A DNA stretch of 64,000 nt from positions 27,962,001-28,026,000 of the forward strand of contig NC_042997.1 in the NCBI RefSeq assembly GCF_006345805.1. The letters run 5' to 3'. Of the stretch, positions 12,186 through 54,477 are shown piece after piece. The translations under genes and the position numbers were made by a program. The stretch is from Octopus sinensis (lineage: Eukaryota). The notes under the pieces were generated by a model that was not told the origin of the DNA, did not search any database, and was given only the letters and a program-made list of their open reading frames with translations. Numbering within the stretch: position 1 is the first letter of the stretch; each line of letters opens with the position of its first letter.

Positions 12186-12310
12186 ATGTATATGTATATA
12201 TATATATATATATATATATATATATATATATATATATATATAATAATAATAATAATAAAACAATACTGGGAGGATAAGAAACGGAACGAATATATATATA
12301 TATATATATA

Positions 12311-12890
12311 TATAAAATATTAGAAAAAAACACCTTTTATCAATTCAAAATGAATAATTAAATTACACCATCTAGAAAATTACATATAATAGAAAAGTTA
12401 AAATTAAAATAACAATAAAAAGTAAAGATTAAATAAATTAGAAAAATTAGAAAAATCTATTGAGGCTAACATTGATTTCGTGATAAAAAATATCTCAATA
12501 TCTGAACAACTTTCAAGCCCATCACATATACAGAATGGTGATAATCCCCATTTTATATAGTTGTATATATGTTTTTACGTAAGTATATAAATTCATATGC
12601 ACACTCACACACATAAGTGTGTGTGTAAATTATACATACCTATTATATACATTTTTATTATGTTTGTAATTTACTTAATCTTTACTTTTTATTGTTATTT
12701 TAATTTTAACTTTTCTATTATATGCAATTTTCTAGATGGTGTAATTTAATTACTCATTTTGAATTGATAAAAGGTGTTTTTACTAATATTTTATATATAT
12801 TTTATATTGTGTAGAATTTGTTTTAGTATTTCTAAATTGAATTCTTTTTCCTTGTAAGTTTGGATATTATTCCCTCAAATAATAATAATT
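12311..12890 (+). mobile_element. AT-rich PLE-like tail with inverted partial copy (12311-12440 vs 12667-12797) in (TA)n
   Basis: An inverted repeat of about 130 bp is present. The 3' terminus TTTTCCTTGTAAGTTTGGAT...TCCCT resembles the reverse complement of 24003-24035. Confidence 0.6.
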
Positions 12891-13834
12891 ATATATATAT
12901 ATGTATATATATATATATATCCAGCAAACAAATGCAAAAGTTGTGTGATGCAAATCTAAATAAATACATACAGTACTATTGCTGAAGGGCTGTAATACAT
13001 GTAAAATAATACATTCTCTTATTCTGTTAGCAGAATATTTTACAACTTATTTTTTAGCTTTCCTTGCGTTTTGACTATAGAGCCATTTATTATTTTCTCT
13101 CGGTGCTTGTTTTATAAAGATACACTTTGAAGACATTCATTTCTTCATTTATACAAATATCAGAAAATGACCAAGAAATGTCTTATTGAATGACAGAAAA
13201 GCATTTTCCATTTCTTCTTTGACTTCGTGACGTGAGTTTTTTTTTTTGAAAACAGCGCAAAACTATTACTCTATACCCGTAGCATAAAACTCTTCCATTG
13301 TTTGCAACTTGTGTAAAGAATCATAAATATAAGCTGTCATAAACAAAACACAGTTTCCATTCATTCACATGCTTACATAAAGAGAAACACACGCAAACAA
13401 GCACAGGATGGACAAGACACACACATTTTTATACAGTGAGGAAACACACACACACACACACACACACACACACACACACACACACACACACACACACACA
13501 CACACACACATGTATATGTGTACATAATATAAATGGTGAAGCTTAACGAATTCGCTATTCTAAAGCAACACAAGTCATATTATAAGTACAGAACTATATT
13601 ATAAACATATTGGGTATTACACGTGGAAATATTTTATATTTCATCTAATGTTTTTGAGGTGGTATCGAATTTTCTAATATCTTTATATAAAACTCAGCGA
13701 GTAAATTTCTGTACTCACACTATCTATATATCTATCTATCTATCTATCTATCTATCTATCTATCTATCTATCTATCTATCTATCTATCTATCTATCTATC
13801 TGTCTGTCTGTCTGTCTGTCTGTCTGTCTATATA

Positions 13835-14140
13835 TATCACCGTGATCACCGTGACCGACCAGGCTATCAGATGTTGCTACACATCGCTGGTCACAATGCG
13901 CTTTGCATTGTTTTAGCCTTCAAGTGATGCCACCCCGCTGGCTAAGCGAGCAGGCCAATAGAAGAAAGAGTGGGGGAAAGTTGTGGCGGAAGGGTACAGC
14001 AGTGGTTGCCACCAGCCCCTGCCGGAGCCTCGTGGAGCTTTAGGTGTTTTCGCTAAATAAACACTCACAACGCCCGGTCTGGGAATCGAAACCACGATCC
14101 TACGACCGCGAGTCCATTGCCCTAACCACTGGGCCATTGC
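13835..14140 (-). mobile_element. tRNA-derived SINE with family-B head and an alternative 3' tail
   Basis: The head TGGCCCAGTGGTTAGGGC...GGTTTCGATTCCCAGACCGG is nearly identical to 59404-59790. It diverges after CACAACTTTC into an unrelated tail ending GGTCACGGTGATCACGGTGA. Confidence 0.88.
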
Positions 14141-52504: not shown

Positions 52505-54062
52505 TGTAGCTGGCCCAACCTGTGAAACACACAGACTAAGTCTACTTATGGACATCCTCTTGAAACCCTTCCTTAAACATATCGATAGCCATATCAGAGA
52601 TGACTTAGATATGTTAAACCACCTTCCAAAAAAAACCAAGGAAGAAACAATCCTGGTTTCATTTGATGTAGTCAACTTGTATACCAGTATACCTCATAAT
52701 TATGGACTGGAGGCAATACAATTCTGGTTAGACCAATTTCCGGAAGAAATACCAAAAATGATCAGTAAGGAATTCATTACTAAATCAATTGAATTCATCC
52801 TACACAATAACCACTTCATGTTTGACAATATATTTTACCGTAAAAAATCCGGAATTGCTATGGGTACAAGGGCAGCACCAGTCATTGCGAACTTAACAAT
52901 GGATACATGGAAATAATCATTTACCAGGATCTCTATCAATCTTTGGAAACTCCCTCTCTCAATACATAAAAGAGAATTGGAAACGATTCCTAGACGATTG
53001 TTTCATTCTCTGGAATGAAAACATAGATAAACTCCTAAAATTTAAAAACCTATTGAACGCATAAACCCAAATATACAGTTCACAATGGAATACAACCAAA
53101 AGGAGCTCCCGTTCTTGGATATACTAATTAAAAAATTAACCTTAAAATAGAAACAGACATTTTTTACAAGCCACAGACGCCAAACAATACCTTCTCTTAA
53201 TTCATGCCACCCAAGACACACTAAAACAAACATCCCCTTCAACCTTGCAAGAAGGATATGCACAATAGTGTCAGAACAAAATACCAGGAACTTTAGACTG
53301 CAAGAACTCAAAAACACCCTAATTGACAGACATTACCCAGCTCAACTCATAGAGGATGGGATCAGACGTGCAACAGAAATCAACATAGAAACTTTAAGAA
53401 AAGTTCAACACAACAACACACCTTCCCCGAAAATACTACCTTACATATCTACATACAACCCCAGAAACAAAGAAGCCTTCACCATCATCACCCAGAATTT
53501 ACCAATACTTCATAAAAACCCAAAATTAAAGGAAATTCTAAACATACACCAAATCGTTAAAAGCTACAAACAGCCTAAATCACTTAAAAAGATTCTCACA
53601 AAGGCAAAATTGTCTTCTAAAATTACGGATGCAAAAGTAAAAAAATGTGGTAGATCGAACTGTGCAACATGTCCTAACCTATTGGAAGGATCAGAATTCT
53701 TCTTTAAAGAGGGACAGAAATTTAAGATCAAATCTAACTTTACTTGTGCCTCTGAAAACATAATTTATGTTATTAAATGCTCGGGCTGCCACCAAGACTA
53801 CGTGGGTTCCACGGGACTATCACTCAGGCGCAGATGCACACTGCATCGACAACAGATTGCATTCCCAGAATATAGAATGATACCTTTTAGTGAGCACATT
53901 GAGAAATGCGCAAAGCAACTACTGCCACAATTTTTAATCTTCCCATTTTACCAATGTGCTTTCGGATCATCAACACAAATGAGACTGAACAAGGAAACAT
54001 TCTTCATTGAAAAGTACAAACCCAGACTCAACCATCCGAACATACTGAGACAGAGAAATTAA
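52505..54062 (+). CDS. PLE RT to GIY-YIG endonuclease ORF (inverted copy with several single-base deletions)
   Basis: ORFs 52497-52916 (RT) and 53268-54062 (thumb, Zn-linker, GIY-YIG, ending YKPRLN). Confidence 0.85.
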
Positions 54063-54210
54063 CAAGGAAAAGGGGGAATAAAAAAAAAAAAAAAAATTTA
54101 AGCGATTATCTCCCCTACACCGGAAAAAATCACTCACTACCTCCCCTTATTTAGAAATCTCCTGGAAATAAAAACAACGATAATTCCATGCAATATAAAC
54201 ATAACGTCAC

Positions 54211-54250
54211 AAGAAATTTGAAAAGCTACACGCGAAACCGGTAATTTCTT
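54211..54250 (+). ncRNA. 40-nt minimal hammerhead ribozyme with U3-A8 core in the PLE 3' UTR; predicted cleavage after A54243
   Basis: AAGAAAU UUGAAAA GC uacac GC GAAAC CG GUA AUUUCUU. Stem I is a perfect 7 bp, stem II is 2 bp, and stem III is the palindrome ACCGGU. Confidence 0.82.
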
Positions 54251-54477
54251 TAAAAATTTTAAAATTATGTCATTTTAAGGAAAAGGAAAAAAAATTTTTC
54301 CAATATTCTCCAGACATTTTGACACAAATATATATATTTTTTAACATTTAAGCCTCCTGTCGTTTTTTCACACTTTACTATTTTCTTATATATATATATA
54401 TATATATATATATATATATATTATAATATTATAATATATATAAGTATATATATATATGTATATATGTATGTATGTAT

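Follow-up and report, generated by a model that had tools for sequence, protein, structure and literature searches.

In twin priming of L1 elements, the second strand of the target primes on the RNA and the two complementary DNAs (cDNAs) join by microhomology; the first primer uses the poly(A), the internal site is variable, and the inversion comes without a long duplication. Pairing of primer and template is helped by four to six terminal matches, and terminal mismatches are tolerated (PMC3649969). Among Penelope-like elements with an endonuclease (EN+), insertions with an inverted pseudo-long terminal repeat (pLTR) and a one-sided tail have been described (PMC3846280, PMC8557442). The protein of the Anolis element PAc (Poseidon clade) was reported to cut and extend both strands in vitro from two internal starts, and a dimer model was put forward (PMC11167929). 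Microsatellite targeting and a link to retrozymes are treated in PMC9977147 and bioRxiv 10.64898/2026.07.22.740005, the available text of which offers no priming model. Here we describe four inverted structures, each flanked on both ends by (TA)n, in a stretch of 64,000 nucleotides (nt) of Octopus sinensis (RefSeq assembly GCF_006345805.1, contig NC_042997.1, positions 27,962,001 to 28,026,000 of the forward strand), hereafter the window, together with their relatives elsewhere in the genome.

The structures, which we label E1 (12.3 kb), E2 (17.6 kb), E3 (43.5 kb) and E4 (50-54 kb), are 5'-truncated Penelope-like insertions, E4 being Neptune-type and E2 and E3 Hydra-type. Each arm stops at a fixed site of the element: site 1, the internal run, for the tail-less arm, and site 2, the end of the tail, for the tailed one. 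We consider it probable that each of the two strands of the (TA)n target, once cut, primed a cDNA of its own; both likely used one RNA, the primer likely being paired to a short UA run at the start site.

Inverted structures in the window

The G+C content of the window is 33%, and microsatellites are abundant. A preliminary description, made from the sequence alone, had reported four elements whose inverted arms stop at an internal TA run matching the target; all four, with their runs and positions, were confirmed. The arms are 93% alike in E1, 98% in E2, 95% in E3 and 97-98% in E4. The features are as follows:

12290..12313: E1, left (TA)n target
12314..12460, minus strand: E1, tail-less inverted arm
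12647..12791, plus strand: E1, sense arm, 5'-truncated; the hammerhead of the family lies just upstream and is missing in this copy
12792..12800, plus strand: E1, internal TA run (site 1), perfect over 9 nt
12801..12889, plus strand: E1, tail, followed by (TA)n at 12890-12920
17517..17642: E2, left (TA)n target
17643..17918, minus strand: E2, tail-less inverted arm, with target A at the junction against T in the element
17919..17940: E2, centre join, containing a short templated duplication
17941..18217: E2, second arm
18103..18189, plus strand: E2, predicted type I hammerhead (CUGACGA ... GAAA, minimal palindromic stem III), from sequence and fold, with no Rfam match
18218..18225, plus strand: E2, internal run TATTTATA (site 1), reading CC-TATTTATA, 7 of 8 matching
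18226..18337, plus strand: E2, tail to site 2 (AATATAT continues in read-through copies), followed by (TA)n at 18338-18383
43449..43462: E3, left (TA)n target
43463..43552, minus strand: E3, tail-less inverted arm
43706..43802, plus strand: E3, predicted type I hammerhead (CUGAUGA ... GAAA ... GUC), from sequence; the minimum-energy fold forms it partly
43748..43836: E3, second arm
43837..43863, plus strand: E3, site 1, an ATATAT run at 43837, then TTATAT, and the A/T stretch where the tail-less arms of the family stop
43864..43996, plus strand: E3, tail, followed by (TA)n at 43997-44020
49993..50027, minus strand: E4, 35-nt tail, adjoining (TA)n at 49956-49992; site 2 is TATATAT in the read-through copy
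50028..50034, minus strand: E4, internal TA run TATATAT (site 1), 7 nt
50035..52513, minus strand: E4, tailed arm with frameshifted reverse transcriptase (RT) and GIY-YIG coding, and switched segments at 50740-51105
52505..54386, plus strand: E4, tail-less arm (RT thumb, CX4CxxC linker, GIY-YIG), ending in (TA)n at 54387-54420
54328..54337, plus strand: E4, longer internal TA run, unused as an end (control)
25410..26019: fifth hammerhead-bearing family, head-to-head pair; control with targets other than (TA)n

End points and arm pairs

End points were tallied by hand over the first 100 rows among the matches listed for each family. Tail-less ends recur at the internal run, as the window had led the preliminary description to expect. 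E2 gave 49 tailed and 51 tail-less ends, all 51 of the latter inside a 10-nt window (three rows are a single triplicated locus). E4 gave 55 tailed ends, one of them a read-through, and 45 tail-less ends, 45/45 at the run. The E3 rows comprised 42 tailed, 56 tail-less and 2 other ends, so that 56 of the 58 non-tailed rows fall in a 26-nt A/T stretch, across several mini-runs.

Head-to-head pairs consist of one tailed and one tail-less arm with hardly an exception. This was so in 34/34 pairs of E4 (39 loci; of 40 fetched, the tandem read-through copy L163 was excluded, and five were single-arm, one of these tail-less), in 25/25 simple pairs of E2 (26 loci, part of them chosen via a tailed query) and in 20/20 pairs of E3 (32 loci; the script call for L102 was corrected). 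By hand count, 14 of 15 E1 pairs conform, and the exception has a piece of tail 550 nt further on. To say that the inverted copy lacks the tail is to apply a label only, since either arm may be longer. Single tail-less insertions exist, and site 1 is probably not solely a site for the second strand.

A few loci depart from the common targets. At L152:5137-5180 the E4 tail end is joined to (TC)n, not (TA)n, at the element's own TC; an E3 tail is joined to (TCA)n (L110), and one E3 tail-less end to (GTAT)n. In E1 the internal TA run can lengthen or take later insertions (L143/L144, L121), the element thus being its own target.

Probable pairing at the internal run

The position of the site 1 junction in E2 varies, in steps of 2 nt, yet 49 of the 51 tail-less ends among the matches listed keep the (TA)n register. 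Many E2 arms show the A of the target where the partner arm has T; the target A replaces the T of the element, and therefore the primer overlapped the RNA there. Subfamilies of E2 vary at position 5 of the site 1 window. An early start is found in 30 of 45 pairs with T at position 5 of the partner arm and in none of the 10 that have G or A there (p 1e-4); for two sister subfamilies alone the counts are 11/16 and 0/10 (p 7e-4). For these counts the rows of each locus were condensed manually to a single one, and two partners with garbled sequence were classed visually; an additional G locus missed by the script (L207) is out of register. Judged from these junctions, the (TA)n primer was likely base-paired with the short UA run at the start site; the start position is set otherwise, and pairing fine-tunes it. 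The annealing of the target to the internal run that the preliminary description proposed is in this way supported by the register, by the target base overriding that of the element and by the subfamily-dependent shift.

As to the comparison with random expectation, runs of at least the observed length cover just 1.6% of positions in E3 and 2.5% in E4, and the break points recur across the genome; chance does not account for this. E2 is without a long perfect run (3+4 nt), and 18% of its positions are equally good. The overlap in the fifth family, given below, is not significant.

The tail end and predicted RNA folds

The tailed end had been taken for a complete 3' tail. It is instead another internal site, which in E2 and E4 is likewise a TA run. 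Read-through copies read CG-AATATAT-TCCC at the tail end in E2 (three loci: L007, L034/L213 and L214) and TTATC-TATATAT-TAAACACG in E4 (one locus, L163/L191); since they show a TA run there, the tail end is an internal site in these two families. At site 2 of E2, 94 of 98 ends are in register.

The two start sites resemble degenerate duplicates of one another. In E4, CACGTG follows both runs (L191:395-480), and in E2 an AC-rich CCC stretch and GTATG follow both sites (read-through regions of L213 and L214). Single minimum-energy predictions, which lack covariation support and serve as a lead only, would place both E2 sites in unpaired stretches next to stems and site 2 of E4 in a loop that two copies of CACGUG close off; in both families a long helix is predicted to close the region near the ATG.

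Two likely cDNAs and a probable single template

Arm lengths were compared in directly joined pairs, those of E2 on the L213 reference (L201 belongs to a divergent subfamily). The longer arm is the tailed one in 16 and the tail-less one in 15 of 32 E4 pairs, with one equal; in the 22 E2 pairs the counts are 9, 10 and 3, and in E3 the tailed arm is longer in 5/18 and the tail-less in 12/18. The tailed arm falls short of site 1 in 6 of the 18 E3 pairs, which leaves the arms non-overlapping, and therefore neither arm was copied from the other. That either arm may be longer, and that arms may fail to overlap, makes two separately primed cDNAs likely, in agreement with the preliminary description. 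The same two features indicate, indirectly, that the other strand of the target primed a second cDNA at an internal site, which is the mark of L1-type twin priming.

At subfamily-variable columns, the arms within a pair agree in 862 of 871 cells in E2, against 67% between loci, and in 129 of 144 cells in E4, against 62%; E3 offers a single such column. The inner ends also tend to coincide. They lie within 20 nt in 10/22 E2 pairs (2.1 expected by permutation), within 30 nt in 9/32 E4 pairs (1.2 expected) and within 20 nt in 6/18 E3 pairs (2.4 expected, p 0.013). Most E4 joins show an overlap of 0-12 nt or a short insertion. One RNA with a common 5' break is probably the simplest account of the concordance and the coincident inner ends.

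Two E3 loci on different contigs (L095 and L106) have identical inner join positions and a different site 1, a pattern that suggests a preferred joining microhomology.

Proposed mechanism

A GIY-YIG nuclease would make a staggered cut in both strands of the target; the duplications of 9-17 nt that bear on this step are seen in the fifth family only. The protein-RNA complex would then offer two start windows, 35-160 nt apart, which correspond to the two ends observed and may be set by protein and RNA structure. The target's 3' end could anneal in register to the UA run with a mismatch tolerated, as the E2 junction patterns suggest, and pairing of the last base would select the exact start, for which E2 is again the source and with which E1, E3 and E4 are consistent. 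The downstream cDNA would either pass the upstream site, giving overlapping arms, or stop short of it, giving the L1-like, non-overlapping form. The cDNA ends are joined at overlaps of 0-12 nt or short insertions, and the joined cDNAs would copy each other into a palindrome with a tail on one side.

A further conjecture, which we hold to be possible but doubtful, is that the pLTR RNA of those Neptune and Hydra elements that target (TA)n comprises two telomerase-like "alignment plus template" modules, that is, single-stranded UA runs beside stems. A dimer might dock both overhangs of one staggered cut on one RNA, RNA-DNA pairing might help to choose the microsatellite, and the tail would be the spacer. 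If this were true, an element with altered runs would be expected to target a different repeat.

Alternative explanations

Several observations weigh against pairing on a single template. The perfect 10-nt TA run of E4, 55 nt upstream of site 1, serves as an end in 0/100 rows among the matches listed; pairing therefore does not choose the site. The fifth hammerhead-bearing family (window 25410-26019 and 8960-9096) targets mostly unique DNA. Its 90 loci include 40 tailed/tail-less pairs, and 27 of these have a target duplication of 9-17 nt, against 2% in mismatched controls. The overlap of duplication and element averages 2.0 nt there, whereas a null simulated without pairing gives 1.5 (n=26, p 0.095; L284 was omitted as a (TA)n target, and 13 of the 40 pairs have no duplication call). 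Since this family makes the same pairs without significant microhomology, the two-site layout needs no TA match, and the TA run is not the sufficient rule for which it had been taken. Read-through copies of E3 were absent from 100 of 692 rows and none was recognised in eight targeted matches; those of E1 were looked for and none was found. With the read-through sequence as template, the commonest E2 junction at site 2 (56/98) would require a terminal A-A mismatch. Junctions at site 2 may, moreover, be a legacy of a source copy whose transcript ran on into the (TA)n flanking it, and because of this the E2 register there is not independent and is given little weight. Other subfamily differences confound the position-5 shift and could contribute to it. 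Gene conversion, or a single source locus, could also produce the arm concordance. Finally, a raw-read check showed no empty site and no piece spanning the locus.

Microhomology in the fifth family had seemed strong in 11 pairs, and was set aside as not significant against the simulated null.

The strongest alternative is that the protein fixes two start sites without any pairing, the TA runs being relics of a past (TA)n insertion or of A/T richness and their match to the target incidental. The unused E4 run, the fifth family and the terminal mismatch at site 2 of E2 all fit this, as do the PAc starts, reported as non-homologous to the cut DNA (PMC11167929). With the cut phase fixed and no pairing, however, one-base jitter should give out-of-register ends, which are seen in 2/51 cases; the E2 junctions move in 2-nt steps with 49/51 in register, and the early start vanishes when position 5 cannot pair. 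We consider this explanation unlikely.

Twin priming with pairing might also have used two RNAs that share a source locus and are kept together by an asymmetric dimer. No strand would then have to be displaced through site 1, the concordance of the arms is compatible with one source locus, and arms within a pair disagree in 15/144 E4 cells. The strict pairing of one arm of each kind, and inner ends that are centred near 0 and not offset by the tail length, are nevertheless simpler with one RNA, and we give the use of two RNAs a low probability.

In a fold-back scheme, one cDNA would form a hairpin and copy back to the internal TA run, and microhomology-mediated repair would connect it with the target's other end. 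Self-priming has been put forward before (PMC3846280), the scheme predicts identical arms and microhomology, and nearly symmetric palindromes are in excess, some with palindromic centres (L185). Were the tailed cDNA folded back, the tailed arm would never be the shorter; yet the tail-less arm is longer in 15/32 E4, 10/22 E2 and 12/18 E3 pairs. The 6/18 non-overlapping E3 pairs refute fold-back as the sole route, and repair would also use the longer upstream run of E4, which occurs at no end (0/100). As a general explanation it is very improbable, and it may contribute part of the near-symmetric subset. That the assembly is at fault, or that independent insertions happen to lie side by side in one microsatellite, is scarcely credible: long-read fold-back chimeras occur and raw reads did not confirm the window junction, yet E4 arms diverge by 0.6% and have unequal ends, 32/32 close E4 pairs among the matches listed are head-to-head, target duplications flank 27/40 fifth-family pairs (null 2%), and the loci number in the hundreds.

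Identity of the elements

E4 encodes a frameshifted RT (RVT_1, E 2e-6, just below the Pfam cut-off) and a GIY-YIG domain recognised by eye, for which the profile search of the E4 coding sequence gave no Pfam match. RT and C-terminal GIY-YIG lie in one open reading frame (ORF), as in EN+ Penelope-like elements, and the tandem and inverted arrangement of the pLTR with a one-sided tail is also theirs. One near-complete E4 copy (L191) has pLTR, tail, ATG and ORF in this order, a layout shared by two E2 copies (L213 and L214). A SIR2 Pfam match was below the cut-off and was disregarded.

Neptune elements are defined by a DKG motif and a CX2-5CxxC linker upstream of a GIY-YIG domain with internal cysteines (PMC8557442). 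In L191, E4 has EADKGNA (DKG), CGRSNCATC (CX4CxxC linker) and VIKCSGC; these motifs would place it in the Neptune clade, Nematis having the same linker. The traits of the Hydra clade include DKT, a CxCX5C linker and (TA)n targets (PMC8557442). E2 possesses PADKTG (DKT), CNCRIKSKC (CxCX5C) and CQLCSME (CxxC), the last near a conserved E, has no CCHH and inserts in (TA)n. E3 has QSDKTR (DKT) as well as CGICNSE and RCMHW (CxxC/CxH); no CxCX5C cysteine linker precedes the GIY-YIG motif in L211, L220 and L222, and for this reason E3 is classed as Hydra-like only. The RTs of E3 and E2 are 44% identical, and E2 and E4 are barely alignable. At most three lineages are therefore shown, and "unrelated", as the four elements had been called, does not apply to E2 and E3.

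The ORFs of E2 and E3 are present in longer copies (L201, L213, L214, L211 and L220); in the proteins of these copies, long inserts rich in asparagine lie between the RT and the endonuclease. Similar inserts occur in rotifer Penelope elements (PMC3846280).

No ORF was found in the two long E1 loci examined (L215 and L216), and E1 is known by its hammerhead and two-end layout only. A hammerhead core lies in E1 relatives just upstream of the point where the window copy begins; the run was said to lie downstream of the ribozyme, but the window copy of E1 has none, unlike its relatives. From sequence, CUGANGA/GAAA cores with flanking stems are predicted in E2, E3 and the E1 relatives, the E4 core being divergent. 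The Rfam scan of the window returned no hammerhead at E<=1, and just sub-threshold microRNA matches on repeats. Exact-pattern anchors numbered 1238 for E2, 694 for E4, 120 for E3 and 1913 for E1.

Other features of the window

Within 50740-51105, the E4 tailed arm holds two inserts from further upstream in the element, one of about 310 nt in opposite orientation and one of 58 nt, which suggests template jumps during synthesis. Another short repeat family with a hammerhead-like GAAA/stem lies within microsatellites at 12005-12190 (minus strand) and 44396-44560 (plus strand), both copies having a single arm. A dispersed repeat in both orientations (57555-59790) and an old 150-nt palindrome (35182-35328) are without (TA)n ends and were excluded from the analysis. 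A 390-nt direct repeat, 96% identical, occurs at 23595-23982 and 56771-57160 beside a TA array. The fragments at 47971-48255, 58761-59144 and 533-907 resemble what we take to be LINE-type RT and gag-like zinc-knuckle coding sequence.

Comparison with known systems

With L1 twin priming these insertions probably share internal priming on the RNA by the second target strand, a pairing that gains from terminal matches and tolerates terminal mismatches, and a microhomology join of the cDNAs. They differ in that neither site varies and that the duplication in the arms is usually hundreds to thousands of bases long. A variable site chosen by complementarity alone, with no long duplication, as in L1, is not what is found: the site is fixed, a better match is unused and the arms are long and overlapping.

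The likeness to EN+ Penelope-like insertions (PMC8557442, PMC3846280) lies in the 5'-truncated inverted copy adjoining the element, the tail at one end and the tandem pLTR-ORF copies, and with Hydra elements the preference for (TA)n is shared (PMC8557442). In these two sources the tail is ascribed to endonuclease resolution or self-priming and the mechanism is called undefined. Tails reported there measure 30-40 nt, against 35 (E4) to about 90-160 nt (E1-E3) here, and the available text of both does not describe a TA run at the ends.

PAc (PMC11167929) is similar in that two starts delimit a tail, both strands are cut and extended, a dimer is modelled, the RNA template is uncleaved and AC-rich sequence lies near the starts. 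The fifth-family layout without a TA match is in line with this in vitro result. The PAc starts are, however, reported as non-homologous to the cut DNA, whereas those of our (TA)n-targeting families match the target in register; the supplements of PMC11167929 (the figure of start site against cut site) and of PMC8557442 may bear on the homology claim. As far as its available text goes, PMC11167929 does not connect the two starts with two inverted arms, a connection made here. A literature search conducted mostly outside subscription papers and supplements found no paper in which these elements are proposed to use either twin priming or TA pairing. The one-sided tails have been published, as have the two start sites; the evidence for pairing is the present addition.

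Tandem and inverted structures and the microsatellite bias were listed as still to be explained in a 2021 survey (PMC8557442). The genome record ties the two starts to the two arms and provides base-level predictions, namely the pairing template base, the ignored run and the register. It bears on how a repeat primer is aligned on a short RNA template in the sister group of telomerase, and on annotation, where small palindromes in their thousands could be entered as scars of a single kind of insertion.

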